64,000 nucleotides of DNA from a virus, in IMG/VR virus record IMGVR_UViG_3300009777_000113, positions 519 to 64,518 of that record, one strand, 5' to 3'. The notes beneath the pieces are model-generated. The model saw only the letters and a program-made list of their open reading frames with translations, was not told the origin of the DNA and did not search any database. Shown piece by piece: positions 16,306 through 63,738 of the stretch (position 1 is its first letter; each line of letters begins with the position of its first letter). A program made the position numbers and the translations under genes.

Positions 16306-16322
16306 GTGATACATTGTATCAC
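16306..16322 (-). promoter_or_regulatory. Palindromic operator/extended -10 site, copy 1
   Basis: GTGATACATTGTATCAC, 20 nt upstream of ATG 16285. Confidence 0.85.
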
Positions 16323-16508
16323 CTATAAACAAAAAAGTGAAAAGGGTAAAATTGAAAAAGTGAAATTTGAAATGTCGCGCAAGATCCCTACAGAGAAGCG
16401 CACGGCCTGCGAATTTCGCCTCATCTATATATAGAGAAGCGAAATCTTAGCGGGATTCTTAGTCTTAGTGTTTGATTTAAACCTAAAACAAAGATTTTGA
16501 CAGTCTTA

Positions 16509-16525
16509 GTGTTACATTGTATCAC
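16509..16525 (+). promoter_or_regulatory. Palindromic operator, copy 2 (upstream of the tandem-RHH gene)
   Basis: GTGTTACATTGTATCAC; TTGACA at 16497-16502 lies 17 nt before TATCAC; flanked by GTCTTAG/CTAAGAC. Confidence 0.8.
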
Positions 16526-16548
16526 TGTTCTAAGACCTGTATGGAGGA

Positions 16549-17016
16549 TTGAAAATGGCGAAACCAAAAAATGAAGATTGGGAATTGGGTGAGCAGTGGG
16601 AAAGTTTTCGAGTTAAGGAGAGCGATGATCTGATGGCTCTTCTTAGTGATGTTGAGGGAAATCGTGGAGAGTTCATTAGAAACGCTCTCCTCAAATTCTA
16701 TGAAGGAAAGTTGCTCATTGATTGCCCAACTTGTGAGGGCGATGGGCAGATTTACAGTGGCAGCGGTAAAGGTCAGGCCCCCTCTTCAAAAAAGAAAGGG
16801 AAGGACGGCAAGAGTAAAGTGTTCACTTTTAGGTCCGACAGCGGACTCCAAAAGGATCTTGCGAAAGCAAAAGACAAAGGCGAAACCATTAAGATGTCCC
16901 TTGCTGTAGCCCTATCCAAAGAGCACGTCTTAGAGTGCCCCACATGCAGAGGTGTTGGCCGTGTGATTGGCGGGCCAAAAATTAGAAAGGCGGTACTCGC
17001 AAGGTTTTCGGTCTAA
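16549..17016 (+). CDS. Putative transcription factor with tandem [RHH-CxxCxGxG]x2
   Basis: ESFRV..DL..LL....NRGEFIRNAL then CPTCEGDG; VFTFRSD..L.......GETIK..L then CPTCRGVG; SD GGAGG (start probably ATG 16555). Confidence 0.65.
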   Translation: MKMAKPKNEDWELGEQWESFRVKESDDLMALLSDVEGNRGEFIRNALLKFYEGKLLIDCPTCEGDGQIYSGSGKGQAPSSKKKGKDGKSKVFTFRSDSGLQKDLAKAKDKGETIKMSLAVALSKEHVLECPTCRGVGRVIGGPKIRKAVLARFSV

Positions 17017-17020
17017 AACC

Positions 17021-19771: not shown

Positions 19772-19788
19772 GTGATACATTGTATCAC
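19772..19788 (-). promoter_or_regulatory. Palindromic operator/extended -10 site, copy 3
   Basis: GTGATACATTGTATCAC followed on the minus strand by TAAATAAGGAG. Confidence 0.85.
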
Positions 19789-20842: not shown

Positions 20843-20859
20843 GTGTTACATTGTATCAC
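20843..20859 (-). promoter_or_regulatory. Palindromic operator/extended -10 site, copy 4
   Basis: GTGTTACATTGTATCAC; the minus strand continues GATAAAAGGAGATCAAG-ATG. Confidence 0.85.
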
Positions 20860-31947: not shown

Positions 31948-31964
31948 GTGATACATTGTATCAC
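31948..31964 (-). promoter_or_regulatory. Palindromic operator/extended -10 site, copy 5
   Basis: GTGATACATTGTATCAC, 24 nt upstream of ATG 31923. Confidence 0.85.
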
Positions 31965-44517: not shown

Positions 44518-44533
44518 AAATTATTCTCCCTCG

Positions 44534-47179: not shown

Positions 47180-47200
47180 ATTGATCTCCCTAACTCATGT

Positions 47201-47217: not shown

Positions 47218-47271
47218 GTTAGAATTTAAAAAACATGCAAATTCCTTACGTCTTCTATTCCATGCGATGTT

Positions 47272-49229: not shown

Positions 49230-49654
49230 TATCCAACTGGCTCCCTATCGGAAAAGAAAACCCTAACAAACGCGAAGCCCGTGTCTGAAAAGTGCGAGGA
49301 CAAATCGCCGACGCTGTGGATGAAATAAAGAAGTTGTTTGAGCGGCTCACCGTGAATCTGCACAATGCGGTCGCCTCGGTTGATCTGTTTGCCTTGGGCT
49401 TTGAGATCACCCCTCTTTAGAATGACATATCCCTTCGCCTTCTCACTGGCTCCAAGCTGTGTGGTCTGCATATCTTGATCGAGATTCGCAAAGACGACCT
49501 GTGCTGGAATAGTGAATTGGTCCCGAACGACGTGATTGATGATTTCTCGTTTGCCACTGACTCCAGTAGAATAGGGAGTTTGAACCTTATTGATGGATTC
49601 AACCACAAGGTCGACGGGTTCGATCAAATCTGGATTTTTATTAAGACCCGCCAT
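49229..49654 (-). CDS. Head-closure (stopper) protein
   Basis: Position; I.RGDRIV.I.G pattern. Confidence 0.6.
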   Translation of the reverse strand: MAGLNKNPDLIEPVDLVVESINKVQTPYSTGVSGKREIINHVVRDQFTIPAQVVFANLDQDMQTTQLGASEKAKGYVILKRGDLKAQGKQINRGDRIVQIHGEPLKQLLYFIHSVGDLSSHFSDTGFAFVRVFFSDREPVG

Positions 49655-50652
49655 TACATGAGATCCTTTTCTCTAATTTCCCGAAAACTGCCGCCGATCA
49701 AAATTGGCCTTCGGTATTGGGATATAATTCGATTAAATCTCTCATTGGTGCTGGCCTGAAAAACTTGGGACTGACCCTTCGGTTCAAAAAACTCTTGCTC
49801 GTGAATATCAACTTTCATCCGCTTAAGGCTTCCAGTGGTTGGCTCTCCTGCCGCCTGAGCTTCAGGGTTTTCCACAGTTTCAATTACGTCGATCATTGTG
49901 GCCTCTTTAATTAAAAGAGGAGTGCTGCCATCAGCCTCTAGGAAACCAAAGTCGCCATCGATCTCTGTAAAAGTGTCCTTTAGAAACACACGATTGGTGA
50001 AAGCACCGGAAAATATATTATCCGTTCTGGTGTTGAGTTTAATCCTCGGATTCCACCTGTCGTCTTGAGGTTCGGTGCGACCCTTTAGAGCGAGAAAGTC
50101 ATTTAGCTTTCCCTCTATAAGTTCTTGTTCCGTACTGTTAATTTTGAGAAATCTAATCCCGATAATGGGTACATTCAAAAATAGAACTGGCGAATTATTG
50201 CCTTCAAATTGAAAAACGCCGGATCGCTTATTAAAAAATTGACCCGTCTCACGATCAACTCTCGCCATCGACAAACGAACAAGAGTTTCGCCCCTGTTTT
50301 TAGGCACCTCGTCTGAATGAAGAAGCTGTGCCGGGCCATTTTGAATTGGATTTTCAGCTCCGGTTTTCTGAAGACGGATGCGATCTGGAGTAGTTAAGAT
50401 TTCTTTAATGCAGTCGGTGTAACCTGCCTGCTCTATGACATCACCGATCTTGGGAGTCGGATCTCCACTTGCAACCGTGAAGTCGTAAAAGTCGCCAAGT
50501 GTATCTACGACTTTATTCGCAAGAGTGATCGCAGATACTTTGACCTTTGAGGATTTTCCTCGCGCAAGTTCTAAAAGAAGTTCACCGTAGGTGATGTAAG
50601 GCCCGATGTTATCCATTAGCCCCACCTTCTTAAGAGAAGTCTTGCCCGCCAC
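49654..50652 (-). CDS. Head-tail adaptor/connector protein
   Basis: YITY.EL, A..RVDR.TGQFF, F.G.NS..LFL; KRMKVD.HE.EF. Confidence 0.65.
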   Translation of the reverse strand: MAGKTSLKKVGLMDNIGPYITYGELLLELARGKSSKVKVSAITLANKVVDTLGDFYDFTVASGDPTPKIGDVIEQAGYTDCIKEILTTPDRIRLQKTGAENPIQNGPAQLLHSDEVPKNRGETLVRLSMARVDRETGQFFNKRSGVFQFEGNNSPVLFLNVPIIGIRFLKINSTEQELIEGKLNDFLALKGRTEPQDDRWNPRIKLNTRTDNIFSGAFTNRVFLKDTFTEIDGDFGFLEADGSTPLLIKEATMIDVIETVENPEAQAAGEPTTGSLKRMKVDIHEQEFFEPKGQSQVFQASTNERFNRIISQYRRPILIGGSFREIREKDLM

Positions 50653-52652
50653 AATGTAGCTTGAATACCACCACCAGAAGAGGCGTAGTCGAGATCGATA
50701 AAGTGGTTGCCTGCTGCCAGAGTAACAATGGCAAATCCAGACTGGGGCATACGCTGATCTGTCCCGCCAGGGCCTGCGCCGCCCGAATCCGCAGGATTCT
50801 CTCTGTGCTCCATGATTGTTTGAGCATTATTAGTTTGAACGCGAGCGAAGAAGTCCGTAGTTTCTGAGTCGTAACCCCACTCGTAATACCATTCGATTTT
50901 ATATTGTCCTCCAGCAAGACCATTTGCATTCAATGTGAGGCCCGTTTGGAAAGCAGCAGATGCCGTGGTCTGACTTGTATCGATGGCCGCCGAGTTCGCT
51001 TCAAAGATCGGGAAAGTATTATGGACGTGATCACTTCTTGCAAAACTGTTTGCCGATCCTTGTGCATTTGCATCCCCTGTATTTTGAGGCGCTGCCGTCG
51101 GAATATTGTGAGTATGGTCCGACTTAGCAAGGGATGGCGAAGAGCCAGCGGCGTTGGCTTGATCAGGCGTTTGCGTCGTTGCTGGTCCCGATGCGATGGC
51201 GTGGGTATGGTTGGATCGCGCAAAGCTGGGGTTTGACCCTTGAGCGTTCGGTGAGTTGGCATCAAGTCCTACAGCAGACGCCGTTGGAATATTGTGAACA
51301 TGGTCTGATTTAGCAAGTGAAGCAGCAACACCTAGAGTATTGGCCTGGTCAGGTGTCTGCGCTATAGGCAATCCCGACGCAATTGCATGAGTGTGATTTG
51401 ATCTCGCAAAACTCGGATTTGAGCCTTGAGCGTTCGGAGAGTTTGCGTCCAGTCCTACTGCAGATGCGGTCGGAATATTGTGTGTGTGATCTGCCTTTGC
51501 TAGTGATGTCGATGAACCTGGGGCATTTGCCTGATCAGGTGTTTGTGTCGAAGCAGGGCCAGAGGCAATCGCGTGAGTGTGATTTGACCTCGCAAAACTT
51601 GGATTGGAACCTTGAGCATTGGGAGAGTTCGCATCTAATCCAACCGCAGATGCCGTTGGAATATTATGTGTGTGGTCGGCTTTTGCAAATGACGGAGACG
51701 CGCCCGCAGCGTTGGCTTGATCTGGAGTTTGCGTTGAGGCAGGTCCCGAAGCCACTGCATGGGTGTGATTTGATCTTGCAAAGCTAGGGTTAGAACCTTG
51801 GGCGTTAGGTGAATTGGTATCGAGGCCCACGGCTGAAGCAGTTGGAATATTGTGCGTGTGATCTGCCTTGGCGACAGTATTTGCTATTCCAGCGGCATTG
51901 GCTTGATCCGGCGTTTGCGTTGAAGCCGGGCCAGTTGGAATCGGATCCGCACCTGCAGGCGCATGACGATTGCCGTGAGACTCAACGACTACACCGTTAT
52001 AAGTGCCGACGTTCGAAATATTGTGGCCTTGCCCATCGAGATCGCCTCCAAGCTCAGGCGTTGTATCATCAGAGAGATTCGCCATTGGACCGACGGGACC
52101 TTGGGGGCCAGTAATATTGGCGAAGAGACTCCATGTCGTTGGCGAATTCTTCTCGTAAAGATCGCCGTTTGATTTGTCGATGTAAAAATCTTGTTCTCTT
52201 CCAAGAGCGGGAGCGGGTGGTCCCGCGCCCTGAAACCAATCTGAACCATCAATGTTGGTAATGAGGTTCCAGACCGTCGGGGCCGTCTTCTCGTAAATGT
52301 CTCCTTCATCAATATCGATATAGAAATCCTGAATTCTGCCAAGCGCAGAATTGGGAGGACCGGAACCTTTAAACCAATCCGATCCATCGACATTGCCACG
52401 CAAAGTCCAAGTATTGAAATTAACCTTTTCGTAAAAATCGCCCACATCAGAGTCGAGATAAAAGTCACCTGTTCTCCCTAACGCTGGTGCAGGAATTCCG
52501 GCACCTGTATGCCATTTCGATCCAAGATTTGAAGTTGAAATCCATTCTAAAAGACCAGCGGCGTTCTTGATGGGAAAAGACTCATTCGAAGCAGGTAAAA
52601 ACCCCTTCGGAGGATGAAGTTCTGAGTCTGGTAGGTCCTTATGAATTGGCAT
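50616..52652 (-). CDS. Head/neck fibre with tandem repeats
   Basis: Three ~46-aa G.FY.D..G..YEK repeats, a short collagen-like GPQGPVGP, five 62-aa HxH repeats, jelly-roll tip. Confidence 0.75.
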   Translation of the reverse strand: MPIHKDLPDSELHPPKGFLPASNESFPIKNAAGLLEWISTSNLGSKWHTGAGIPAPALGRTGDFYLDSDVGDFYEKVNFNTWTLRGNVDGSDWFKGSGPPNSALGRIQDFYIDIDEGDIYEKTAPTVWNLITNIDGSDWFQGAGPPAPALGREQDFYIDKSNGDLYEKNSPTTWSLFANITGPQGPVGPMANLSDDTTPELGGDLDGQGHNISNVGTYNGVVVESHGNRHAPAGADPIPTGPASTQTPDQANAAGIANTVAKADHTHNIPTASAVGLDTNSPNAQGSNPSFARSNHTHAVASGPASTQTPDQANAAGASPSFAKADHTHNIPTASAVGLDANSPNAQGSNPSFARSNHTHAIASGPASTQTPDQANAPGSSTSLAKADHTHNIPTASAVGLDANSPNAQGSNPSFARSNHTHAIASGLPIAQTPDQANTLGVAASLAKSDHVHNIPTASAVGLDANSPNAQGSNPSFARSNHTHAIASGPATTQTPDQANAAGSSPSLAKSDHTHNIPTAAPQNTGDANAQGSANSFARSDHVHNTFPIFEANSAAIDTSQTTASAAFQTGLTLNANGLAGGQYKIEWYYEWGYDSETTDFFARVQTNNAQTIMEHRENPADSGGAGPGGTDQRMPQSGFAIVTLAAGNHFIDLDYASSGGGIQATLWRARLLLRRWG
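51020..51932 (-). repeat. Five 62-aa (186-bp) HxH tandem repeats
   Basis: Unit GPASTQTPDQANAAG....AKADHTHNIPTASAVGLDANSPNAQGSNPSFARSNHTHAIAS; the last copy is shortened. Confidence 0.9.
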
Positions 52653-52661
52653 AAGCTCCCA

Positions 52662-52823
52662 TCATGTTGAGTCAGTGATGAATTCCCCATCGGTTGTCGT
52701 CACGAACTGCATATCCGTCGTAGTGATCGCCTTCGTTGGTGAAGTTCCCAAAGCCTCAAGTGTTTCAATCGAAACCAAAGTCCTTAAAATTCTTCCGAGT
52801 TTGCCGTTTGAAAAGTACGACAT
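52662..52823 (-). CDS. Small 53-aa protein missed by the ORF track
   Basis: MSYFSNGKLGRILRTLVSIETLEALGTSPTKAITTTDMQFVTTTDGEFITDST; fills the gap with a TGA-G-ATG junction. Confidence 0.55.
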   Translation of the reverse strand: MSYFSNGKLGRILRTLVSIETLEALGTSPTKAITTTDMQFVTTTDGEFITDST

Positions 52824-52824
52824 C

Positions 52825-53106
52825 TCAGAGCCTCCACGCCCACACTCTCACGCTGGCATTTTGCGGAGAGCGAAGCCAAATTTTACCAACGCTCACCCCG
52901 TCTAAAACGAGCGGTGAATCGTCTTTAAGAAGTTCCCCGTGAAGAGACGGGCGCTTAAATGAAAGGTCCACTTGGGTGTCAGAATCATTTGAGACGATCA
53001 GCCGCGTGGCTTGAAATGGAATCTTGATCTGAGCTTCATCAGGAAACTCAGTTAGACCAATTTCAGATCGCTTGTAGAAAAAATTCTGACTTTCCATGTT
53101 CACCAC
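52825..53106 (-). CDS. Small beta protein (paralog of 53107-53391), possible virion decoration
   Basis: Shared NFFY...VRVWA. Confidence 0.6.
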   Translation of the reverse strand: MVNMESQNFFYKRSEIGLTEFPDEAQIKIPFQATRLIVSNDSDTQVDLSFKRPSLHGELLKDDSPLVLDGVSVGKIWLRSPQNASVRVWAWRL

Positions 53107-53391
53107 TTATTTAAATGCCCACACGCGCACTTCGGTCACCGCACCAGATGCTTGTTTCAAAGCAATCCGATTGGCCTCAAGACCTTCAAAGTTCACCAAT
53201 CCATCAGTAGGTTTTATGCGGCCATCGATGCGAGTGTCGTCTGCACCGTTAAGAACAAAATCAAGCTCACCGCCAACGACTGCGATCTTGATGTGCCTAG
53301 AGGAGAATTTGAAATCAAAGGCATTGTCTTTGTAATTCGCGGTCAGCGCCGTGAGTCGTTCGTAAAAGAAATTTCCTCTATTTGTGCTCAT
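53107..53391 (-). CDS. Small beta protein (paralog of 52825-53106)
   Basis: Shared NFFY...VRVWA. Confidence 0.6.
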   Translation of the reverse strand: MSTNRGNFFYERLTALTANYKDNAFDFKFSSRHIKIAVVGGELDFVLNGADDTRIDGRIKPTDGLVNFEGLEANRIALKQASGAVTEVRVWAFK

Positions 53392-53794
53392 TCAAAATCC
53401 CTCGATTCCGATAAACGTCTTTTGAAAACATCTGTTTTCCGACGAAACTCATTGTTGTTCTGGAGAGAATGGGGGGCTTAGGGTCTTCGTATGTGTAGAC
53501 AAGAAGTTCGAGTTTTACTTCGTCGGCATGAACGATAAGACGCTCGCCGAGTTTTCGCTCTGAACCATCTTTGGTGTTGAAAACACTTTCTGCATACACA
53601 TTCACTTTCCTAAAGTTCTTCGGGTATTGAAACGTGTGGAATTTCTTTTCGTGCAAGATTCCGATTCCGGTAATCCTGCTTTGAAAATCCTGAAGGGATG
53701 ACCACTCAAGCCATTGCTGGTAATCAGAGGCGCTATTGAGATCAAATGATAATACTTTTCCATCATTCAAATTCACCTTGATCACTGAAAACAC
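53378..53794 (-). CDS. Hypothetical protein
   Basis: Operon packing in the head region. Confidence 0.6.
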   Translation of the reverse strand: MFSVIKVNLNDGKVLSFDLNSASDYQQWLEWSSLQDFQSRITGIGILHEKKFHTFQYPKNFRKVNVYAESVFNTKDGSERKLGERLIVHADEVKLELLVYTYEDPKPPILSRTTMSFVGKQMFSKDVYRNRGILNEHK

Positions 53795-53810
53795 ACCCCT
53801 TCATTACCGT

Positions 53811-54164
53811 TTACACACCCTCAAAGCCTTTCCCTTTCTTCTTCCATTTTTTCTCGTAGTTAGAGGCTTCCTCTTGGACTTCCTCTCTTGGCTGTTCTTG
53901 GGCCACCTCGGACTTGTGAACCTCTGGAGCTTGAGGCTTCGGAGATTCTTTTCTTTCTCTCGGAGTGGGGGTCACCTTGAGAAGTTTGAAAATGTCGGCT
54001 CTCTTATCCTTTAGATAGGAAAGTTCAGCCGTCGTGATTTCAATAAGCCTTCGCGGATAAAGGTGAAGAGCGCCTTGAACGGACCTTTCACAGTCTTTCG
54101 GGAAGCCATCAATAAAGAGAGGGTGATCTCCTAAGAATTGAACCGATGTTTTTTGATTATGCAT
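53811..54164 (-). CDS. Hypothetical protein
   Basis: Operon packing; charged C-terminus. Confidence 0.55.
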   Translation of the reverse strand: MHNQKTSVQFLGDHPLFIDGFPKDCERSVQGALHLYPRRLIEITTAELSYLKDKRADIFKLLKVTPTPRERKESPKPQAPEVHKSEVAQEQPREEVQEEASNYEKKWKKKGKGFEGV

Positions 54165-54456
54165 TTACATCATCCTCGTGATCGCCCTCGTCATCCTCAT
54201 CATTATCGTGGTCTTCGTCCTCCGTCTTTTCGGGCAGCGTTCGCTTTACGAACTTTTTAGTGCCGCCATCGGAACTCTCTGACCGTCTAGGATCGGGTTG
54301 CGATGACGGGAGACGTTTCACGAGAAAATAGCCATTGGCTTCGAACTGTTTGATTAACTCCTCACCCTTAACGACCTGTGGAACATCTTTGAGCCAGGTT
54401 TTTTTGTTAAAGGTATAGGACTCACAGCCCCGCAGAATCACTCTTGCACTTGTCAT
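54157..54456 (-). CDS. Hypothetical protein with acidic tail
   Basis: SD AAGGAG; directly after the capsid gene. Confidence 0.6.
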   Translation of the reverse strand: MTSARVILRGCESYTFNKKTWLKDVPQVVKGEELIKQFEANGYFLVKRLPSSQPDPRRSESSDGGTKKFVKRTLPEKTEDEDHDNDEDDEGDHEDDVNA

Positions 54457-54486
54457 TTAAGAACTCCTTCTTGGTTTAAATTTCTA

Positions 54487-55701
54487 TTACGCAAGACCCA
54501 CGTTGATTCCGAGTACAACGGCGTCCGTCTCTTCGATCTCAACTGCTACGCGAGTTGTGATCGCAAACTCGGTGGTGCTTGCAAAAATGTTTCGGTCGCG
54601 CTCCATTCGGATGTCTCGGCCAAGACCCAAGATCAGGTTTCGATACTCGGTCAAAAAGATTTGGCTTTCTGCCAAGTAACTGATCTTCACATCCGAAGGA
54701 TCCGGGATCGCTCCGGCACCAACACGGGCAATTGTTCCAGCCGCATTGTTGAGAACATAGTCAACGCCATTCACAAACGGAGTGACTGGAGTCTTGGGGT
54801 TTTGGTTAACACTTTGGAGAACAACGAACTCGCTTCCAAGAACAATGTTCTTGCTCTTCAGACCCACAGCCGTCGCGCCCGACAAAGTCACATGCTCGGT
54901 CACAAGGGGAGTTTGTGGGAGCAGGGCGAGAGGCACTAACTCCACACCAAACGGCATGAGGTTGATTTCGCTTGTTGCGGCGCTATCACCCAAGCCTGTG
55001 GCGCGAGAGGCGAGGTTGTTTCGGAACAACTGCTCTGTGGTGTCTGAGCAGAAGAATTTGAGATTTCTTTTGTTGCGCTTAAATTTGCTCGGCATCTCCA
55101 CAATCATGTCGGAAAAGACTTGATGGGAGATATTCGTACCGTCGTGGTCGACGATATGGGTTGAGCCTGCTCGCTTCAACCAACCATTTTGAAGTTGAAG
55201 GTAGGTGTCCACAATAACTTCCGTTGCGGATCCACCTTCAAGAAGGTCACTTTCCAAACGAACGGGGCCGAGTTTATCGCCTTGAATGTAAAGCTCTTCA
55301 AGGTCATTTGAGAGCTGAGTGGCCATGAGGCGCATGATCGTATCTTCGATATTTTCGCCTTCAAGGTTCTCGGTCACAAATTCATCGGAAAGCTCCCAAG
55401 GCACCATGATTTCTTCAGGTTGAAGGGTAACTTTGCTCGTTTTGATCTTGCGACGGATGCCGGGATCAATAGCCTCTTTCTTTGGAACGGCGACGCGCTT
55501 ACCGACGCCGACTTTATCGATGTCGAGCTTGTCGTTTCTGAAACGCACAATTCGCGCTCGGTCCTTTAGGCCCGTCACGTCGACCACAAAGTCGATAAAC
55601 CGATCCGCCTGGGCGTCGTTCAGGCGGCCAGCAGCGGCGATTTCTGCCGTAGTGATGACCGCCTTTTCTAACAGCTCTTTATTTGTCAGTTTCGTACTCA
55701 T
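54487..55701 (-). CDS. Major capsid protein (HK97 fold) with inserted domain
   Basis: GRL...QADRFID.V, I.K..VG.R, ENLEG..IED.I, NGWLK, I.M...R. Confidence 0.9.
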   Translation of the reverse strand: MSTKLTNKELLEKAVITTAEIAAAGRLNDAQADRFIDFVVDVTGLKDRARIVRFRNDKLDIDKVGVGKRVAVPKKEAIDPGIRRKIKTSKVTLQPEEIMVPWELSDEFVTENLEGENIEDTIMRLMATQLSNDLEELYIQGDKLGPVRLESDLLEGGSATEVIVDTYLQLQNGWLKRAGSTHIVDHDGTNISHQVFSDMIVEMPSKFKRNKRNLKFFCSDTTEQLFRNNLASRATGLGDSAATSEINLMPFGVELVPLALLPQTPLVTEHVTLSGATAVGLKSKNIVLGSEFVVLQSVNQNPKTPVTPFVNGVDYVLNNAAGTIARVGAGAIPDPSDVKISYLAESQIFLTEYRNLILGLGRDIRMERDRNIFASTTEFAITTRVAVEIEETDAVVLGINVGLA

Positions 55702-55723
55702 TTTATATCTCCCTTTTCAAATA

Positions 55724-55740
55724 GTGTTACAATGTATCAC
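55724..55740 (-). promoter_or_regulatory. Palindromic operator site, copy 7
   Basis: GTGTTACAATGTATCAC upstream of the capsid SD GGGAG. Confidence 0.8.
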
Positions 55741-55741
55741 G

Positions 55742-57259
55742 TTACGAATTGGTTCTAGGCTTGTTTAAAAAAGCCTCGCGTCTTGAAATCTGCATCTTGA
55801 TGTCATCAAGACCAATAATGTCGGAGAAGACCGACTTCTGACTCTTGTCTTTGCCATCGCCATTGTCGCCACCCTCCTCATCATCACTGAGCGCGGCTGA
55901 TCCGCCCGCAGTGTTTTCGATTTCATTAAGCCGCTTTCCAATTGCTTCGATCTTGTTCGTTGACTCGTTCCTGACTGCTTCAACCGATGTTTCAAGGGAT
56001 TGAACACGACTGACTAAGCCTTCAGCTGCTTTGCTTAAATCTTTCTTGCCCTCTTTCTTTCCACCCATGACGGATCGAATAAGAGTCGACAATTTTTCTG
56101 AAATCTCTCGAAGAACCGTGAGCCTTTCTGTCGAAATCTTGGCCCCCACTTTCGAGATTTCTGCTTTGAAGGTGGAAATGGATTGCATCATCTCTGTTTG
56201 CTCCGGTGTAGGATTCGCTTCACCCTCACCAGTGCCTCCATCACCCGTAAGCATTGCAACCTGCTCTAAAGCCATCAAATTCAGCTCTACAATTTGGTTT
56301 AAGGCCCTTGCCGCCTCGTCGTGTAGAGAGAGCGATTGCTCCAGCATGGTTTTTAGTTCAGAAAATTGTTTTCGGATTTTCTCAAGCTCCTCTTTCATAT
56401 CGCCCCCTTCATGAGCTGATCCTTTTTCAAGTTCCTCTTTGAGATCATCGGGCAAGAGTTGATCAAGAGGATCTTCTGGATCAAATCCTGGGCTAATTCC
56501 AAGTTTCAATTCACGACGGATAATGCGTTCGTGAATAACAGCTTTGCTTTCTTCTTCTTTGTAACTGGAGGCGAGTTGTTTGAAGCGAACTTTTGAGTTT
56601 TTGGTTCGCTCAACAGTGTCGATGGGAAATTTTAGGTTTACCGGATCTGCATAGTCATCAAGACCAGCAGGGAAACCTGCGGGGAATGTGAGGGCTGCAT
56701 CGTCTCGCATTTCAATATCAAACTTGTCGGAGCGACCTTCGAGACTTTTCTTCAGGTCGTCCTTACTCATGCTGTCGCTAGGGACAAGTGCTTTTTCTGA
56801 TGTATCAAATTCCTGCGGGTAGGCCTTTTTGTACTCTTCAAAGCTGAATGCTCCCGCCAAGCATTGATCGAATACACCTTTATCCATACGATCAAAGGCG
56901 CAAGAGAAACAGACGCCACATTTAAGACCAATTTTCGGTTCGCTCCCGCCGTCGACCTTACAGAAATGACAAATGCCTTCTTCCGAGTGGTTCTTCTCAA
57001 CCGACGACTTCCAACTGATGCCCTTCTCAATGACTTGTCCAAAAGACTCAGATGGCTTTTTTCCATCGAGAGACTTGATAATAATGAACTCTTCACCGAT
57101 GGCGGGCTTATCGACTGGGCTAAATTCGTTGACGGTGAGGTTTACGATTCTTTTAACGCCCTTTTTGTCCTTAGCTTTTGACATATTATGCAGCCTCCCA
57201 ACTGATGCGGTTAAAATCAGGGGTGATTTGCATAGACTTGTGAACACCCTTTTCGTCAA
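55742..57259 (-). CDS. Scaffold/head-assembly protein (Cys cluster, DUF6582-like domain, coiled coil)
   Basis: L.VNEFSPVDKPA; CHFC..CGVCFSC; YADPVNLKFPIDT; C-terminal coiled coil. Confidence 0.7.
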   Translation of the reverse strand: MTKRVFTSLCKSPLILTASVGRLHNMSKAKDKKGVKRIVNLTVNEFSPVDKPAIGEEFIIIKSLDGKKPSESFGQVIEKGISWKSSVEKNHSEEGICHFCKVDGGSEPKIGLKCGVCFSCAFDRMDKGVFDQCLAGAFSFEEYKKAYPQEFDTSEKALVPSDSMSKDDLKKSLEGRSDKFDIEMRDDAALTFPAGFPAGLDDYADPVNLKFPIDTVERTKNSKVRFKQLASSYKEEESKAVIHERIIRRELKLGISPGFDPEDPLDQLLPDDLKEELEKGSAHEGGDMKEELEKIRKQFSELKTMLEQSLSLHDEAARALNQIVELNLMALEQVAMLTGDGGTGEGEANPTPEQTEMMQSISTFKAEISKVGAKISTERLTVLREISEKLSTLIRSVMGGKKEGKKDLSKAAEGLVSRVQSLETSVEAVRNESTNKIEAIGKRLNEIENTAGGSAALSDDEEGGDNGDGKDKSQKSVFSDIIGLDDIKMQISRREAFLNKPRTNS

Positions 57260-58649
57260 TCAGGCGGGCTTCACCACCAATGCTAAACCCTCGGATTTTT
57301 CCGGCTTTGATTAAATTCCATACCTCATCATCGAAAACCTTAACGGTGACCATCCAGGTTCCTTCGATGACTTGTCTTTTACTGAGTTCAAAACTGACAG
57401 GAACAATGTAGCTCTCGACAACTGCGATTTTCTTACTGAAGTCGACGTGCATGAAACCCTGGTCGGCACGAGAGTTAAGGCCGATCTTTGCTAAGAACTC
57501 AGGGTCCTTTTGAAAAGTAAGTTTGGTCATGTAATTGTGAGCCGCATTTTCAATCTCTTCACGGCTGACAATTTCATTTTGAAGATCGATTGTTTCAGGA
57601 ATCAGAAGCGGCCCCATAACAAGGCGCTTGTCTTCAACTTGTTTTAAGATCGGATAATCAAAACACTTTTCAACGAATTTCCTTTTCTCGGTAGTGGTTG
57701 AGAAGAGGGCCTTAATGCCCTCTAGCTTTCTGGCACACTCGGAGAGATCAAGCGATTGGATGACGTCTTGGGCAACTGATGTGGAGGTTGAAGAAGACGT
57801 GCTTTCAGATTCATTTACGGTCTTCGGTGTTTCAGTTAGGCGTTCTTCATTTGTAAGGAATCCGACTACTGCCTCAACACCCTCAGTAATGCGAATGCGT
57901 TGAAGGGTCGGTTCTTGAAAACGATCAGAGGAAAGGATTAAGAAAGTGAAGGCCCCGTCACGGTCTTCAATAGTCCGGCTTTGAAGGCTATGGTCCATCA
58001 CAAACCGCTGGGCCGCGCCCACGTCAGTGAAGCGCTCCTTTGAAAGAATAAGGGCTTGAATTCTTAGCCCATCTGACAGGCGTGACAAACTCTTAAGAAG
58101 ACAGCTTGTGACTGCCGCCTTTAAGACCTCATTGATTTCCGGTTGGTTGAGGCGTTTGATTGTGCCGAAATCGAGTTCAAGAGGTGGGGTCAGAGACTTT
58201 CTTATATTCAGATTGGAAAGACCCTTTGATTGCTTTGATGCCCGCTCAACTTCATCAATCAGCATTCCAGGCAGGATGGATACAAAACTCTGCTCACCAA
58301 CTTTTAGAAGGTGCGTGTGAAGACCGGAAAGTGTGGAGGCTTCAGATTGGATTTCATGGGCATGGGGAGATGAGCTTTGGGTTCTAAGATCGATTGTTCC
58401 GCGCTCTGTTTTGATGAGCACTTTGTGTTCATGGATTGGATTTTCTTCGGGCGCAGTGAGATTTTTCTCAATATCTACGGAGTGAGAGTGTGAACCGTCC
58501 AGCTCCGTCATTAAGAGACGGTCATTTACAAAGAAGATGTGCTTGTGAATACCATCAAGCGCAGTCTTTTCCTTTGTATGAAGTCGGTGAAGATGTATCC
58601 CGCCTTCACCCATGATTTTAGTTTTCGTTGCTGTCATCTCTTTTTCCAA
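57186..58649 (-). CDS. XkdF-like prohead protease with N-terminal His-repeat domain
   Basis: LVMGPLLIP...DLQ.E.VS.EEI..AA..Y, MH, VVESY, GTW, DDEVW..IK.GKI.GFSIGG; N-terminal HxH repeats. Confidence 0.8.
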   Translation of the reverse strand: MEKEMTATKTKIMGEGGIHLHRLHTKEKTALDGIHKHIFFVNDRLLMTELDGSHSHSVDIEKNLTAPEENPIHEHKVLIKTERGTIDLRTQSSSPHAHEIQSEASTLSGLHTHLLKVGEQSFVSILPGMLIDEVERASKQSKGLSNLNIRKSLTPPLELDFGTIKRLNQPEINEVLKAAVTSCLLKSLSRLSDGLRIQALILSKERFTDVGAAQRFVMDHSLQSRTIEDRDGAFTFLILSSDRFQEPTLQRIRITEGVEAVVGFLTNEERLTETPKTVNESESTSSSTSTSVAQDVIQSLDLSECARKLEGIKALFSTTTEKRKFVEKCFDYPILKQVEDKRLVMGPLLIPETIDLQNEIVSREEIENAAHNYMTKLTFQKDPEFLAKIGLNSRADQGFMHVDFSKKIAVVESYIVPVSFELSKRQVIEGTWMVTVKVFDDEVWNLIKAGKIRGFSIGGEARLIDEKGVHKSMQITPDFNRISWEAA

Positions 58650-58657
58650 CCGATATT

Positions 58658-58674
58658 GTGATACATTGTATCAC
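58658..58674 (-). promoter_or_regulatory. Palindromic operator/extended -10 site, copy 8
   Basis: GTGATACATTGTATCAC upstream of the protease gene. Confidence 0.85.
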
Positions 58675-58763
58675 GTTAGAATTGTAAACATAACTAAATT
58701 CGAAGTAGCAATCCAAATTGGGGGATCCTCCTGTTATGTCATGCCGTGCCAGAAACTCAGTTC

Positions 58764-59813
58764 TTAGCCAGGAATCAGTTCACTCCGACATCTAAAGTGG
58801 GCCGGAGGCACGATGGGCACACCATTTTCAGCGAGCATTTGGGATGCTTCATACGAACTAACGCGGTCCCCTCGACCAAGTCCGAACTCTGATAAGTCTT
58901 TTCGCCAAGGAAAGAGTTCTTTGACCGCGTCCGCTGATGTCTGTTCCAAAATTCGATTCTGCTGCGCCTTCACTAAATCAAGCGTGAAAACCCGCCCATT
59001 CATGGCAAGACATATTTCCGACGTGCGCTCATCTTCTACTGATGACCAAATAACCCTGGTTACTTCAGCCTCGTCCATCAAGTTGATCTGTCCAAAATTA
59101 CGAGCGCGAGTGACTGTGGTCGCCGATAGTCCATCAAAGTATGCTGAAGCCGCCAATTGCCCTTGGCTCCGAATTGTTTCTGGAACGGATTGCTCAAAAC
59201 CACCAAGTCGTCGGGACAATTGTTCCTTAAGAGCAATGCCAGCCTCCTTCTTGGGAAGGCCCCTATCGATGACATTGGTCCTTATCATTTCCGATATAAA
59301 GGTCTTATGATTATTGGAGTAGTGGTCGCTTACAGAAATGAGGTGCAGTTTTGAAAGCGCATCAACGATCAACTCGTCAGTGGAGCCGAAATCGGCCTTC
59401 AGAAGTTCTGATTTACTCATTCGCTTTTTTAGTTTGTGCTGATTTTGGAATCGTGTGCGGTTGAGTTTGTATATTTTCGCAACATCACTCTCCAGCCGTG
59501 ATCTGATTTTTTCATCGATCTCTGAAAGTATTGTTTCCAATCGTCTCTCAATTTTTCGTTGATCTGCCTCTTTTAGAGTTTCGCGTTGTACTCCATTTAC
59601 AAAGGAAACCACGCTTTCTATGGCGCGGCTCACGAGAAGATTCCATTCACGCATGACAAAGCGATTGAGCGCTTCTTCTACGCGGTTTATCTGCGCTCCG
59701 TCCTGATCGTCGGTCGCCTTTTCAATGATTTCTGACATGAGACCATAGAGTTTCTCCTTGGCCTCATAGTCCAGACTAACAGCATCCTTTAGACTCATGT
59801 GGTTTGGCTCCAT
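58764..59813 (-). CDS. Minor head protein (Mu gpF/SPP1 gp7-like)
   Basis: WSSVEDERTSEICLAMNG...PPAHFRCRS. Confidence 0.85.
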   Translation of the reverse strand: MEPNHMSLKDAVSLDYEAKEKLYGLMSEIIEKATDDQDGAQINRVEEALNRFVMREWNLLVSRAIESVVSFVNGVQRETLKEADQRKIERRLETILSEIDEKIRSRLESDVAKIYKLNRTRFQNQHKLKKRMSKSELLKADFGSTDELIVDALSKLHLISVSDHYSNNHKTFISEMIRTNVIDRGLPKKEAGIALKEQLSRRLGGFEQSVPETIRSQGQLAASAYFDGLSATTVTRARNFGQINLMDEAEVTRVIWSSVEDERTSEICLAMNGRVFTLDLVKAQQNRILEQTSADAVKELFPWRKDLSEFGLGRGDRVSSYEASQMLAENGVPIVPPAHFRCRSELIPG

Positions 59814-61560
59814 AGCTTTCTCGCATAAGTTCGTTTCCTAGTGCATCCCGAACTTGGCTGAGTTTCTCGATGTACTTTTGAGGCTTTTCAAAAATCTGTT
59901 CCAATAGATCATCCGGTGACGAACTCGTAATTGAATCGTCCTCAACCGACTCAGTTCCTGGGCGCTTAGGCACCTGGCCTTGGCCATCGAAGGTTCCATT
60001 TTGATTGGCCGTGCCCGCGCTGTGCATGAGTTTGGCGAGAGTGAAACTAAATGGAACGTCGGGGTCAAACCCCTCCGGCAGATTGCTAAAGTCAGGAAGA
60101 TCACGATTTAAAATATCTTCTAAGAGCATTCGGGCAATTCGTGGCGTCAGTGCCCCGGAACGCTCGGCCCCGGTGAGGATACGAACAAGGTCTTCATCAT
60201 TTGTGACATTTGGACTATTCGATTTGAAAACCCAGAAACAAATGCCTTGTGCGAGTAGGATTTTATTGATTTCGCGGTCGATCTCTTCGCGCTCTGGATT
60301 GTAAACATACTTTTCTGTTAGGGCCTCTGAGACTTGTGCTGTTGCGCGGTCATAGTTTTCAGAAGCCCCGACCAGAATCGGTGCAATTCTAAAATTGCGT
60401 CTGAGTTTCTTGGCGTTGTTTTCATCGTAGCTTTGCCAGAGCATATCTTGGTGTTGAGCGCGGGTAAGCGGCACGATCTCAATCTTGCTGCTGTTCGGAC
60501 TTGATAGACCATCGTGAGTAGATTCGCCCTCAAGAATAAGCCACTTGGAATAGTTGGAACTTCCTTTGATCTGCGTATCAACGAACTCTCGAATACGATC
60601 AACCGATCCTTGAGTAAGCATCCCACCGTTAGCGAGAATTGCGAACGAGGGGATATTGTTGTTCATGAGCGTAATGATGTTGGTTTCGTCGGCCTGTCGG
60701 GAGCCTTTAATAGAAATAATATTTCCCGTAAATCTAGGCATTCCGTAAGGAGTGGGACGTCTTGATTCAATCTTAAAGTGAAACAGCTCGTTAGCCCGAA
60801 ACTGAGGCTCAAGACTTTCAGCGACCTCTCCCGTGCGTTTATCTATAAGACGGGGATCTCCGAATTGCTTAAAGAATACTTTTTTTGTGCCAATGATCTG
60901 CACAAATCTTCTGAATCTCTTTTGAAAGAATTTGGTTCCAAGCGAGAAATCGTTTTTGACATAGTTCAATCCGGTACGGGTGATAACACGGTCAGTTTTA
61001 GTAATCCTGATCGTTGCTGCATTTATTCTGTTGATGGCTGAATACTTCTTGGGTTCCGTTAAACTAGGAACCAGCTCCCAGTACGCATTTCCTGTTAGCT
61101 CCTTTTCCTGTGTCGATTCACGTCGGAGTCTAACGAATGATTCTTCTGCGTTAGGGTAACTAAAGAAGTGATCTAAAAACTCCTCTTCCTCATCAATTTG
61201 CTTTTTGAAGGATTTTTTCTGCTCTTCGCTCATCGGCCTCAGTGTGAAACGATGGCCAAATCCATCAATTCCAACGGCCATTGCGTCACAGGTCTGCCGC
61301 AATTCAGTTGAAAACTCAGCAAGCACGGATAGCTCGCCAAGAGATAGTGGCGGGTCGATCACTTTATCCCTGATCCCAAGACTATCAATGTCGGCATCAA
61401 CCAGAGCTTGGCTATTTGACTTCTTAATGTCCAACGGATTGACGCTGATGACAGTGGCCTTAAGGATATGTCGATTGCCTTTTTCGTCTTCGACTTCAAC
61501 TCGCTTTGAGATTTTTTTTGTCGGCTTAATCTTGTCGGGGCTTCCTAGTATTTTTGTCAT
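59776..61560 (-). CDS. Portal protein
   Basis: Follows terL; ELTGNAYWE, KQFGDPR, YGMP, F.IAPILVG...YDRATA, LTPRIAR. Confidence 0.88.
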   Translation of the reverse strand: MTKILGSPDKIKPTKKISKRVEVEDEKGNRHILKATVISVNPLDIKKSNSQALVDADIDSLGIRDKVIDPPLSLGELSVLAEFSTELRQTCDAMAVGIDGFGHRFTLRPMSEEQKKSFKKQIDEEEEFLDHFFSYPNAEESFVRLRRESTQEKELTGNAYWELVPSLTEPKKYSAINRINAATIRITKTDRVITRTGLNYVKNDFSLGTKFFQKRFRRFVQIIGTKKVFFKQFGDPRLIDKRTGEVAESLEPQFRANELFHFKIESRRPTPYGMPRFTGNIISIKGSRQADETNIITLMNNNIPSFAILANGGMLTQGSVDRIREFVDTQIKGSSNYSKWLILEGESTHDGLSSPNSSKIEIVPLTRAQHQDMLWQSYDENNAKKLRRNFRIAPILVGASENYDRATAQVSEALTEKYVYNPEREEIDREINKILLAQGICFWVFKSNSPNVTNDEDLVRILTGAERSGALTPRIARMLLEDILNRDLPDFSNLPEGFDPDVPFSFTLAKLMHSAGTANQNGTFDGQGQVPKRPGTESVEDDSITSSSPDDLLEQIFEKPQKYIEKLSQVRDALGNELMRESYGAKPHESKGCC

Positions 61561-63093
61561 TTATAATAGTCCTGGTTCTGACGGGCGTTGTTTTTTCAGT
61601 CCTGCAAAGGCCACTGTGATCGCCAAATCCAAGGCATCAAAAAGGTCTTTGTACCGTCCGTCGGGAAACTTAAGTAAATGTTCAATGAGGTCTTGCATTT
61701 CTTCTTTCACATGCACTTGGCGACGCTCGAAAAAGGCCGAGAGTTTCCACGCTCTCGATACTTTGTCTTTTTCTGTGTAAACTGGAATGGCTCGTATAGA
61801 TTTAAATTCGTCATCTTGGGCAAGATCCTGAATGAAGGCGCGTTGATAACCATTGGCCTCAATGCCTACGCGAATCGGATCAAATCTGAAAAACTCCTCG
61901 GCAACGATCTGCTTTCTTTGGCCGAAGGTTGCGACAATATTGTGGTAGCTCAGGATGTAGATTTTCTTCGTCTCCATGTGAACGCCAATAGTCGCGTGTG
62001 CAAATCGATCCGCGTTCTTCGCTTGCTTCGAAGCAAGATCAACCCCCTGGTAAATCTTGAGTTCGTTGAGATCGACAGTTTTGTAATATCTGAACCACTC
62101 AAGTTTAAATATTTTCCCTTTCATCGCAGCGACGTCATTTTGATATTGGGTGTTGAAAATGATGGTCCCTAGAACCTTCCGTTTCTTCAGGAGAAACTTC
62201 ACGCTACACTTCTCTGGCCAAAGCGAGAGGTATCTCTCAGATTCTGGCGCTCTACTGTCCATGTTCGGCTTTTCAATGAGTGCAGGAATTGAAATGTAGT
62301 GCTGTCTAGTGACCTTGCCCTTGTGATCTTTCTGACAAAGCACATTTTCCATCAAGTATCCGTATAGATCGTCGGGATTGTATCGAGTGCCAATAACTGA
62401 CATCTCGCCGTGTGGTTCTAAACAAGGATCAAGGACCTTAAAGAACCAAGTGTGAATTTTTTCCCTTTGCGTTTCTGTGATGCTGTTGGATTCATCAATT
62501 AAGTCGTCAGCGATGATTACGTCATAGTGCTTTGAGGCAATGGCTCCGCCGATACCAATAGTCTCAATGGTATCTTCTTTGAAATCTGCAGTGCGGGCTC
62601 TTACCCGAATGCTGCCGTCATTCCAAGGTGATCCCTGTTGAACGCCGAAGACCTCAACCATTTTTGGTCGAAGAAGCTTTTGTTTGATTTCTGATAAAAA
62701 GCTGACAGCATTCGTGTCAGTTTTGGAAGCGATAAGAATCCTAATGTTCGGGTTCTGTAGGATCTTTAGAATACACCGAGCAATATTCAGACAGGTGCTT
62801 TTGCCGAAGCCACGAGGGGCGAGCGTTAAGTTCCAGAGTTGTCTTTTGTCGAGAGTGTTTGCGATAACGAAGGAGTTATTTTGAACAGCATCGAACATGA
62901 CCTCGTGAAAGTCTTTGATCTCGTAACCGAGCACTTCGGTCATAAGAAGATCAATTCGGCTTTCATTAAGTATGAGGTCCCTTAAAAATTCATTTTCAGT
63001 GGCCTTCTGCATTCTGAATTCAGTTACAGCTTCCTGGTGTTCTCTGAATCCTTGGAGTGCCGATGTGACTAGAGCCTTACTTGAAGTCACCAT
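61561..63093 (-). CDS. terL: Terminase large subunit
   Basis: LAPRGFGKST, HYDVIIADDL, IGTRY..DDLYG, QGVDLA, IEANGYQ, FPDG..KD.FDAL. Confidence 0.95.
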   Translation of the reverse strand: MVTSSKALVTSALQGFREHQEAVTEFRMQKATENEFLRDLILNESRIDLLMTEVLGYEIKDFHEVMFDAVQNNSFVIANTLDKRQLWNLTLAPRGFGKSTCLNIARCILKILQNPNIRILIASKTDTNAVSFLSEIKQKLLRPKMVEVFGVQQGSPWNDGSIRVRARTADFKEDTIETIGIGGAIASKHYDVIIADDLIDESNSITETQREKIHTWFFKVLDPCLEPHGEMSVIGTRYNPDDLYGYLMENVLCQKDHKGKVTRQHYISIPALIEKPNMDSRAPESERYLSLWPEKCSVKFLLKKRKVLGTIIFNTQYQNDVAAMKGKIFKLEWFRYYKTVDLNELKIYQGVDLASKQAKNADRFAHATIGVHMETKKIYILSYHNIVATFGQRKQIVAEEFFRFDPIRVGIEANGYQRAFIQDLAQDDEFKSIRAIPVYTEKDKVSRAWKLSAFFERRQVHVKEEMQDLIEHLLKFPDGRYKDLFDALDLAITVAFAGLKKQRPSEPGLL

Positions 63094-63096
63094 TAC

Positions 63097-63705
63097 TTAG
63101 GATCCCTTGCCGACAAATTTAGACTTCTTTTCTTCGGGGAGGATTATGACGTTGTCAGGGAGCTTTGCTCTCGTAGAGGGATCCATGTATTGGGCAATTT
63201 CTGACCGAATGGTGATTCGCCGAGATGCAATTTCCTTGAGCCTTAAAACTTCGCGTTGAATCTCAGATCGCACTTCTTCAGCAGTCATAGTGCTGAACGT
63301 GAGTTCACTGGTAAGCTTCAATTCTGAAGATGCTTTGGGAATCATGCCGAAGTCTTGAGCCATTTTGATGACAGAGTCGTAGGCTTCCTTTTTCTTCCAG
63401 ATGGCAGTCACCATCGTTTGGAGATTGCCCTGTTCTTTCGCAAGGCCGATGAGCGATTGAAGCTCTCTGATAACGTAGGTGATTTTAACCAAGTAATCCG
63501 AATAGTAAGAAAACGGATCGAGTTTCTGGAGAAGAGCTTTGTCGGAATCAAGAAGGTATCTTTTTACTTTGGCGAGTGTCGTCGGTTTAATATCAAGCTT
63601 GCGGGCAATTTCTTCATCCGTGTAGTTCGCGCCAATCAGTTTTTTCACGTCAGAGACGAGGTTGCGCTTCTTCTTATTAAGGGTTTCCGTTTTCTTGTTT
63701 TTCAT
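63097..63705 (-). CDS. terS: Terminase small subunit-like HTH protein (start set at ATG 63705)
   Basis: Directly upstream of terL; YTDEEIARKLDIKPTTL HTH; SD GGGG; the ORF-track start at 63741 runs through the operator. Confidence 0.65.
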   Translation of the reverse strand: MKNKKTETLNKKKRNLVSDVKKLIGANYTDEEIARKLDIKPTTLAKVKRYLLDSDKALLQKLDPFSYYSDYLVKITYVIRELQSLIGLAKEQGNLQTMVTAIWKKKEAYDSVIKMAQDFGMIPKASSELKLTSELTFSTMTAEEVRSEIQREVLRLKEIASRRITIRSEIAQYMDPSTRAKLPDNVIILPEEKKSKFVGKGS

Positions 63706-63721
63706 TTCCCATCCCTTTAAC

Positions 63722-63738
63722 GTGATACATTGTATCAC
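63722..63738 (-). promoter_or_regulatory. Palindromic operator/extended -10 site, copy 9
   Basis: GTGATACATTGTATCAC, 16 nt upstream of ATG 63705. Confidence 0.85.

Follow-up and report, generated by a model that had tools for sequence, protein, structure and literature searches.

The window analysed here is a 64,000-nucleotide stretch of viral DNA (bases 519–64518 of the 67.5-kb IMG/VR provirus record IMGVR_UViG_3300009777_000113) in which a 17-bp element, in most copies a perfect palindrome, is repeated just upstream of genes of very different functions. The phage is a temperate myovirus of Bdellovibrionales. Its capsid protein is 98–99% identical to prophage genes in metagenome-assembled genomes (MAGs) of Bdellovibrionales/Pseudobdellovibrionaceae, and the host is a Bdellovibrionales bacterium, a Bdellovibrio-like predator. 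PHROG and Pfam searches support the genes for the large terminase (terL), portal, head-morphogenesis protein, prohead protease, major capsid, tail sheath, tape measure, baseplate wedge and M15 endolysin. The replication block, identified by the same searches, encodes an AAA_24 protein, a YqaJ exonuclease, a DnaB-like helicase, a primase-like protein, RusA and a 5′–3′ exonuclease. The structural, endolysin and replication genes found in this way are all on the minus strand. The left end has an integrase and a divergent HTH_3 (helix-turn-helix, HTH) gene pair. The names given to the structural and endolysin genes in the initial annotation broadly hold; those of the holin and the small terminase (terS) are based on position only.

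The nine copies of the element that had been annotated are recovered by an exhaustive scan of the window with the pattern GTGWTACAWTGTATCAC (Table 1). No match occurs in any of 100 dinucleotide-preserving shuffles, and zero are expected by chance. Relaxing the search to three mismatches adds no further copy in the window; the sites are therefore an all-or-none class with no degenerate members. Isolated half-sites are not enriched (3 observed, ∼8.7 expected). A tenth copy is found in the record beyond the end of the window. Read on the minus strand, all ten copies start with GTGATACA, followed by the centre base (A in nine, T in one), TGTA, a T (six copies) or an A (four copies), and CAC. The element can be described as two 7 bp boxes, GTGWTAC and GTAWCAC, whose starts are 10 bp apart, around the centre ACAATGT.

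At least 92% of the genome is coding, and yet all ten sites, which span 50 kb, are intergenic. The lytic block has 14 gaps of at least 20 bp, nine of them with the motif, and in the structural block it is present in every gap of 40 bp or more except that preceding the gene for RHH-Zn-2, a protein described below. The distance from the end of the motif to the start codon is 16–24 nt for the eight leftward genes of the window, 29 nt for the one rightward gene, which encodes the related protein RHH-Zn-1, and 3 nt for the methylase gene beyond the window; the placement 8–30 nt before start codons first reported for the nine copies is correct. There are no terminators directly upstream of the sites and no T-run downstream of them. 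The set of motifs is a real, strongly non-random and phage-specific promoter-operator regulon and, as initially proposed, the element heads the replication, packaging, head, tail, fibre and lysis units as well as a regulator gene.

Table 1. Motif copies, candidate regulator genes and associated features, in window coordinates
Feature	Position	Strand	Context
Motif copy 1, perfect palindrome	16306–16322	−	20 nt to ATG of the first gene of the replication operon (16079–16285); −35-like TTCACT, 17 bp upstream of TACAAT
Motif copy 2, GTGATACAATGTAACAC on the minus strand	16509–16525		29 nt to RHH-Zn-1 ATG (16555); flanked by TAAGAC boxes
RHH-Zn-1, 153 aa	16555–17016	+	Divergent from lytic genes; candidate motif-binding regulator
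TAAGAC/GTCTTA boxes, three (16462, 16503, 16531)	16462–16536		Switch region
Motif copy 3, perfect	19772–19788	−	17 nt to TTG start of a 143-aa gene heading the endolysin-containing unit; complete promoter context (TTGACT, 16 bp, TG, TACAAT)
Motif copy 4, right arm TGTAACAC	20843–20859	−	17 nt to ATG of an 85-aa membrane protein (putative holin-like)
Motif copy 5, perfect	31948–31964	−	24 nt to ATG of a 1942-aa fibre-like protein
Motif copy 6, perfect	47201–47217	−	21 nt to tail sheath ATG
Motif copy 7	55724–55740	−	22 nt to major capsid ATG; sole copy with TACATT
Motif copy 8, perfect	58658–58674	−	20 nt to prohead protease/scaffold ATG
Motif copy 9, perfect	63722–63738	−	16 nt to ATG of small-terminase-like gene, followed by terL and portal
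RHH-Zn-2, 109 aa	63790–64000 (gene to 64119, past the window)	−	Paralog of RHH-Zn-1; directly upstream of terS
Motif copy 10	65441 (genome C1:65959–65975), beyond the window		Ends 3 nt 5′ of the ATG of a ParB-N6-methylase gene
Integrase (275 aa) with HTH pair	1206–3050		Not conserved in relatives
Short tyrosine-recombinase-like protein, 175–196 aa	65510–66100 (genome C1:66028–66618), beyond the window		Head of methylase/RHH-Zn-2/terS block
Further TAAGAC(T)/GTCTTA clusters	3410–5139; 15819–16080; 65893–66218 (genome coordinates minus 518)		Left-end small-gene region and around the integrase-like gene

Some features of Table 1 lie beside the regulon. The methylase/RHH-Zn-2/terS block is headed by the short tyrosine-recombinase-like protein in every relative (L133, L136, L139, L143 and L144), ∼100-kb phages included. 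Host genes adjoin this protein's gene in L144 and G008, so that it may be the actual integrase. TAAGAC(T)/GTCTTA is a second repeated word of this genome, and a relative with the type-B motif (see below) has five TAAGAC copies in the equivalent switch region (G008:C4:11598–11660); it is probably the operator of another regulator. In addition, the large terminase of the distant relative L139 (L139:2327–6112) is 1261 aa long and contains Intein_splicing and LAGLIDADG homing-endonuclease domains.

The initial annotation allowed that the motif might be a common host regulator box. Three host MAGs were scanned for it. In a 4.9-Mb MAG (G006), the motif is present ten times in each of two prophages and once at each of two other places; in a 5.4-Mb MAG (G007), it is present ten times in a prophage and once on a small contig. 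The 2.7-Mb MAG G008 has a more distant prophage with its own motif version, type B, and all 12 copies of it are within the prophage. Outside prophages the motif is thus seen only in one satellite-like element, and it is therefore phage-specific rather than a host regulator box. The two prophage copies of G006, whose capsid proteins are 98–99% identical to that of the window, are on contigs C1 (42.7–108 kb) and C13 (49–115 kb), with ten sites each, and each has a satellite-like element 30–50 kb away.

The three non-prophage sites (L030:7883–7899, L031:8073–8089 and L032:2687–2703, from G006 and G007) are followed by a conserved operon for small zinc-finger proteins. It encodes a 77-aa protein and a zinc-finger protein of 162–172 aa, to which L031 and L032 add another of 138–143 aa. 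Its last gene encodes a serine recombinase of 577 aa in one copy; in another it encodes a tyrosine integrase of 390 aa. Here the motif is part of a full promoter, TTTACA or TGTACA followed at 16 bp by TG-TACAAT. The sequences point to a small integrative element that is a probable satellite sharing the phage operator, and since it is seen only in genomes with a prophage of the present motif type, type A, it may be wired to the regulator of its helper.

Beyond these genomes, a megablast of 20 kb against INPHARED gave no match, and the best tblastn match of terL is below 30% identity. The exact 17-mer is found at 11 IMG/VR loci, about the chance expectation. In unrelated AT-rich IMG/VR phages (L007, L009, L010, L012, L013 and L015–L017), GTGATACAATGTATCAC forms a terminator-like stem-loop, and most of the 17-mer loci have A- or T-runs on either side or a GGG...CCC extension. 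Because of these hairpin flanks, and because the phages are unrelated, such occurrences look like chance or convergent reuse and do not indicate kinship. The motif strings were not found in any paper of the literature searched.

Relatives of the phage were collected by way of the capsid protein or of RHH-Zn-2, and the gene positions of their motifs were scored as far as each contig reaches. Variants of the motif precede the same gene classes, i.e. terS, protease, capsid and sheath. The sheath gene has one in every relative checked for it, and the copy before the capsid gene is off-consensus in relatives (TACCTT, TACACT) as it is here. All share the core ACANTGT, and their arms differ by lineage: GTGTTACAATGTAACAC in G001 and L143, GGCATACAATGTATGCC in G008, GTTTTACAYTGTAAAAC in L133, GTAGTACAATGTACTAC in L144 and ACCACAATGTGGT in L136. 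These arms are either symmetric or arranged as a two-box direct repeat of 7 bp boxes 10 bp apart; the direct-repeat form GTATAACANTGTATAAC is found in three ∼100-kb phages (G009, G005 and L021) and in the short contig L135. Both arms vary jointly among relatives, from which it follows that selection acts on the dyad, or two-box, architecture itself. Among capsid relatives with 56% identity or less, neither an ACANTGT-core motif nor an RHH-Zn-2 gene was found within 10 kb.

In the ∼100-kb relatives the boxes occur in direct, convergent and divergent orientation. One of them is G009 (IMGVR_UViG_3300009788_000091; 106 kb, complete, with terminal repeats), which has 13 GTWWWAC-N3-GTWWWAC sites where 0.1 are expected. 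Seven of the 13 are perfect palindromes within long early control regions, often paired 37 bp apart; the sites preceding terS, protease and capsid are direct repeats, and in three more, the sheath site included, box orientation is mixed. The paired palindromes, GTATAACANTGTTATAC, are in early control regions at 10.8–13.2 kb and 88.6–94.2 kb, and the direct repeats, GTATAACANTGTATAAC, are 4–21 nt before late genes at 41–63 kb. The two paralogous RHH-Zn proteins may read the two forms of the element, a hint being that RHH-Zn-1 of G009 has a single unit.

The motif had also been described as an extended −10 promoter. Each of the ten copies has TGATACAAT or TGATACATT on the minus strand, with TG at −15/−14, one base upstream of a −10 hexamer having A at −11 and T at −7. 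The hexamer is TACAAT in nine copies and TACATT in one, and nACAnT in relatives. Seven of the eight leftward sites in the window read TGATACAAT, and three sites share an upstream AATTC(G)TAAC, both as originally noted. The extended −10 therefore stands for this lineage, but in types B to F the TG is lost while dyad and core persist, so that the TG is a lineage feature and not a conserved function. The further claim that the asymmetric centre base tracks gene direction fails: the site at 16509 reads TACAAT on the minus strand and TACATT on the strand of its own gene, and in G008 the replication operon likewise begins with a site whose centre base is not flipped. An A on the coding strand is found at eight of nine leftward sites here and at seven of ten in G008 (the others being C, C and T), which is a bias at best.

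The hexamer match is no independent proof of a promoter, because the same bases belong to the palindromic core. The motif holds the only consistent −10-like sequence upstream of these genes. A −35-like hexamer is present in this phage only at copies 1 and 3, the remaining sites scoring at background. In L141 the arrangement is TTGACT-16-TACACT, with the hexamer within the motif. In L139 and L140 (TTGACT-16-TATTCT, TTGACT-16-TAATAT and TTGACA-17-TATGAT), the dyad occupies the spacer and touches the −10 hexamer. The element overlaps a σ70-type promoter core, or lies next to one, in every lineage examined. Start codons are 3–29 nt downstream, which leaves no room for the motif to act as an activator site of a separate downstream promoter. 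Overlap with the promoter core, together with this lack of room, is the geometry of a repressor operator. Two sites that are 3–4 nt from the start codon and have no Shine-Dalgarno sequence fit near-leaderless transcripts that would start at the motif.

No match to the σ70 domains Sigma70_r2 and r4_2 was found in the 67.5-kb record, although a highly diverged gp55-like factor may escape the search. A phage RNA polymerase gene was not found either; all large open reading frames encode structural or replication proteins. The phage must therefore use the host polymerase. Canonical −35/−10 matches are depleted in the structural block (window 44001–64000; 10, compared with 21.1 ± 4.7 in shuffles), consistent with selection against stray promoters. 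For the host group, a Bdellovibrio paper gives only a FliA-type consensus, TTAAG-N16-CCGATA, which is unrelated to the motif, and a paper on Bacteriovorax chromatin gives no promoter motif.

The candidate regulators are two paralogs. RHH-Zn-1 has two β-α-α-like, i.e. ribbon-helix-helix-like (RHH-like), units with a CxxCxGxG after each. RHH-Zn-2, whose gene is between those of the methylase and terS, is linked to it by profile comparison (E 9e-5). The RHH-Zn-2 gene adjoins terS in five of five relatives searched, and every motif-bearing relative checked has kept it. RHH-Zn-1 was found in four, the fifth being a fragment that does not cover the region, and is single-unit in the ∼100-kb phages. 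The search of related prophages suggested initially shows at least eight lineages (G000, G008, L133, L136, L140, L141, L143 and L144) in which the motif or a variant is found ahead of the gene for RHH-Zn-2 or of its operon. The RHH-Zn-2 family forms 77 clusters at 50% identity among 1.84 billion proteins. The RHH-Zn proteins match no Pfam RHH family, and the family has no Pfam model; a single-protein IMG/VR search for relatives of RHH-Zn-1 found none.

An AF2 model of RHH-Zn-2 built from 64 sequences has a pLDDT of 86.8. In a VIA-align structural search, more than 20 of the 38 rows for residues 54–100 are RHH domains. The best match (residues ∼54–103) is the omega repressor (Z 3.5), followed by CopA, TraM-N, AmrZ, NikR, RelB, DinJ, PutA and SvtR. 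A profile search against the Protein Data Bank (PDB) gives pArc, weakly, at E 0.32, and a first model of lower confidence matched the relaxosome chains 9f0x_E and 9f0y_F, which may be TraY, at TM 0.5. The cysteine motifs match the zinc ribbons of DnaJ CR-type and Anti-TRAP proteins. The neighbours of RHH-Zn-1 in a language-model Atlas are CopG-family clusters (0.90–0.91). The consistency of the match list and these CopG-family neighbours are the grounds for a tentative assignment of an RHH fold. The operator layout, two 7 bp boxes set one helical turn apart, in inverted or direct order and lying on either the −10 or the spacer, matches that of RHH operators.

No homologs of the HTH/CI-Cro proteins of the window were found in the motif-bearing relatives G008, G009 and G005, and in none of the three is there an HTH gene beside the integrase-like gene. 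Among DNA-binding candidates, only the two RHH-zinc-ribbon paralogs are conserved.

The interpretation that we favour, and consider somewhat more probable than not, is that the 17-bp element is a promoter-operator cassette, common to all lytic transcription units, that is repressed by an RHH-zinc protein. The centre ACAATGT would provide the −10 hexamer TACAAT to a σ70-type factor of the host, preceded in this lineage by TG, and the predicted transcript start is at the 3′ end of the palindrome, just before the Shine-Dalgarno sequence. The two boxes, which are on one helix face since they start 10 bp apart, would serve as operator for a phage protein binding as a dimer or pseudo-dimer, the likeliest candidates being RHH-Zn-1, RHH-Zn-2 or both. 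The binder is most likely a repressor, because a protein on about −16 to +1 would exclude RNA polymerase. Ten units would be gated together: the methylase with RHH-Zn-2, packaging, protease, capsid, tail, fibre, two lysis units, replication, and the regulator's own gene.

A wider version of the proposal is more doubtful, with a modest probability. A single-chain RHH family clamped by two CxxCxGxG half-sites might be the master switch of a clade of Bdellovibrionota phages, acting through the −10 of every lytic promoter and diversified into at least six immunity-like arm specificities. Satellites might have copied the operator of the helper, so that their recombinase operon is released together with the helper's lytic genes, and the shared Cys4 site could make the switch sensitive to zinc or redox state.

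Several observations weigh against repression by an RHH-zinc protein. The structural matches of RHH-Zn-2 are weak (Z 3.5 or less), and Foldseek against the PDB gave nothing significant for it. Across 13 lineages, its overall identity is no guide to the type of arm: proteins that are only 42% identical share arms, and others that are 58% identical differ. A residue-to-arm reading code was sought for RHH-Zn-2 and none was found; the invariant Ser/Thr-x-Arg of strand 1 could read the invariant core instead. One of the seven early palindromes of G009 is centred ∼50 bp upstream of a consensus promoter, not over it. Finally, eight of the ten sites here have no −35, type-B sites have neither TG nor −35, and other variant types also are without TG; promoters with neither element may need an activator.

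This last point raises the question of whether the lytic promoters are activator-dependent, i.e. weak −10-only promoters fired by a phage factor that binds the two boxes and recruits or remodels the polymerase, with RHH-Zn-2 as the candidate. Such a reading is improbable, but it keeps a real share because the type-B sites look too weak to fire unaided. It also fits the position of RHH-Zn-2 directly upstream of terS in all relatives, as in the late activators RinA, ArpU and Alt. The motif heading the recombinase operon of the satellite-like element is likewise reminiscent of P4, which carries helper-activated promoters. However, the element is at about −16 to +1 or in the spacer, where bound proteins normally block polymerase, and with start codons so close there is no space for a downstream promoter. 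The sites with consensus −35/−10 sequences (satellite, L139, L140 and L141) need no activator, and a motif that also heads the replication operon and the regulator's own gene defines no late class. Characterised RHH proteins, moreover, are mostly repressors.

The same cassette might be read by another protein, with the RHH-Zn proteins acting elsewhere. The candidates are the conserved 68-aa protein encoded first in the replication operon and an HTH repressor of the Xre/CI type; 17-bp palindromes of the form 8+1+8 are the classic operators of HTH dimers, HTH_3/HTH_31 genes adjoin the small integrase in L143 and L144 and are found in the window at 2339–3050, and no covariation was found between RHH-Zn-2 residues and the arms. 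This alternative is rather unlikely, given that the HTH proteins of the window and the HTH neighbours of the integrase-like gene have no counterparts in G008, G009 and G005 and that the direct-repeat versions of the site are ill-suited to a symmetric HTH dimer.

Many dispersed intergenic sites, a co-varying motif and a site before the regulator gene are also features of the stoperators of cluster A mycobacteriophages (PMC6550527). The sites could then be roadblocks rather than promoters, a bound repressor halting polymerases that arrive from upstream, as L5 gp71 does. This is very unlikely here: no other −10-like sequence is consistently present, a proper −35 stands 16–17 bp away at several sites, the two sites 3–4 nt from a start codon fit near-leaderless starts at the motif, and known stoperators are asymmetric and oriented whereas the present sites are palindromic.

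Little probability, and slightly less than for roadblocks, attaches to ordinary strong extended −10 promoters of host σ70, with the right arm as a by-product of duplication and with no dedicated binder. TGATACAAT is a good extended −10 and its orientation is kept on the minus strand in all ten copies, but relatives alter both arms symmetrically and yet lose the TG, conservation extends over 17 of 17 bp including −6 to +1, which a promoter does not need, and half-sites are not enriched. An RNA-level element, i.e. a 7 bp hairpin in read-through transcripts that governs processing, stability or, near the Shine-Dalgarno sequence, translation, is scarcely credible: a perfect copy folds at −5.9 kcal/mol and the same 17-mer is the terminator-like hairpin of unrelated AT-rich phages, but four of ten copies here have an A-A mismatch (−1.2 kcal/mol), the direct-repeat sites of relatives cannot fold (−0.2 kcal/mol), so that a hairpin cannot be the conserved function, and no T-run follows the sites.

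Four other explanations were set aside. Tyrosine-recombinase core sites are dismissed by reasoning, as an 8-1-8 arrangement is too short and ten sites would scramble the genome. A methylase target is dismissed on inspection, the motif containing no GANTC- or GATC-like word. Late antitermination of the lambda Q type would call for one site rather than ten, and fold matches to lambda Q are insignificant (E >2, TM 0.27). Promoters of a phage σ factor or RNA polymerase do not fit, as no such gene was found in scans of the 67.5-kb record.

Gene regulation in phages of predatory Bdellovibrionota is essentially unstudied. The regulon yields a precise target: its ten sites are near-identical, two proteins are candidates for the regulator, specificity comes in six or more natural variants, and a probable satellite has the same operator. 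If repression by RHH-zinc proteins proves true, it would represent a new DNA-binding protein family (tandem RHH plus zinc ribbon), a compact case of whole-genome control by a single operator fused to a −10 box, and a collection of mutually orthogonal operator/regulator pairs. The motif is in addition a practical marker in metagenomes for these prophages and satellites.

The initial annotation set the element apart from known systems. It does differ from Q antitermination and from a phage late σ factor, but the contrast was overstated, since stoperators, P22 Arc/Mnt, P1 C1/Lpa and phiC31 are precedents. In mycobacteriophage L5 and other cluster A phages, an immunity repressor acts genome-wide as a single-repressor system, with an operator and about 24–36 stoperators (PMC6550527, PMC9283540). 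Likenesses include one phage protein (here a candidate), genome-wide sites in short intergenic gaps, drift of the motif among relatives, and a site before the repressor gene, which is autoregulatory in cluster A. Stoperators differ: they are 13 bp long, asymmetric and oriented, their reader is a monomeric HTH protein of two domains, and most of them act on elongation. The sites described here are dyads or two-box repeats fused to a −10, number ten per genome, and have an RHH-zinc protein as candidate reader.

The immI region of P22 encodes the RHH repressors Arc and Mnt, whose operators overlap Pant/Pmnt and are each bound by two RHH dimers. Two paralogous phage proteins, which in the present phage are putative RHH proteins, operators over the promoter core, and a divergent control region are common to both. 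The P22 system, however, controls one small region and not every lytic operon, and its repressors lack zinc ribbons and form dimers or tetramers of separate chains. The RHH repressor omega of plasmid pSM19035 binds WATCACW heptads, in direct or inverted order, that overlap promoters (PMC9499535; PDB 1irq, 2bnw). It resembles the present case in its 7 bp boxes over promoters, and the box TATCAC is common to omega and to type A. Omega is a plasmid protein with no zinc motif and uses contiguous arrays of 7–10 boxes with a 7 bp period, whereas here there are exactly two boxes with a 10 bp period. TraY of the F plasmid is a single-chain tandem RHH protein, with both halves of the dimer in one polypeptide (bioRxiv 10.1101/2024.12.19.629322). 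It is a relaxosome accessory factor acting at oriT, is without CxxCxGxG, and has no detectable sequence relationship to RHH-Zn-2.

Phage P1 has C1 operators dispersed over its genome, and its late promoters, which depend on Lpa, consist of a −10 and a conserved inverted repeat that replaces the −35. It thus shares with the present phage the dispersed sites for one regulator and the combination of a −10 with an inverted repeat. The C1 operators are asymmetric 17-mers, and the late inverted repeat of P1 is an activator site near −22, whereas the dyad here is centred on the −10. The conserved inverted repeats of phiC31 form, as do the C1 operators of P1, a genome-wide single-repressor system. The layout of the Bdellovibrionales phage regulon resembles these known phage-wide repressor systems, but its probable regulator belongs to an undescribed protein family.

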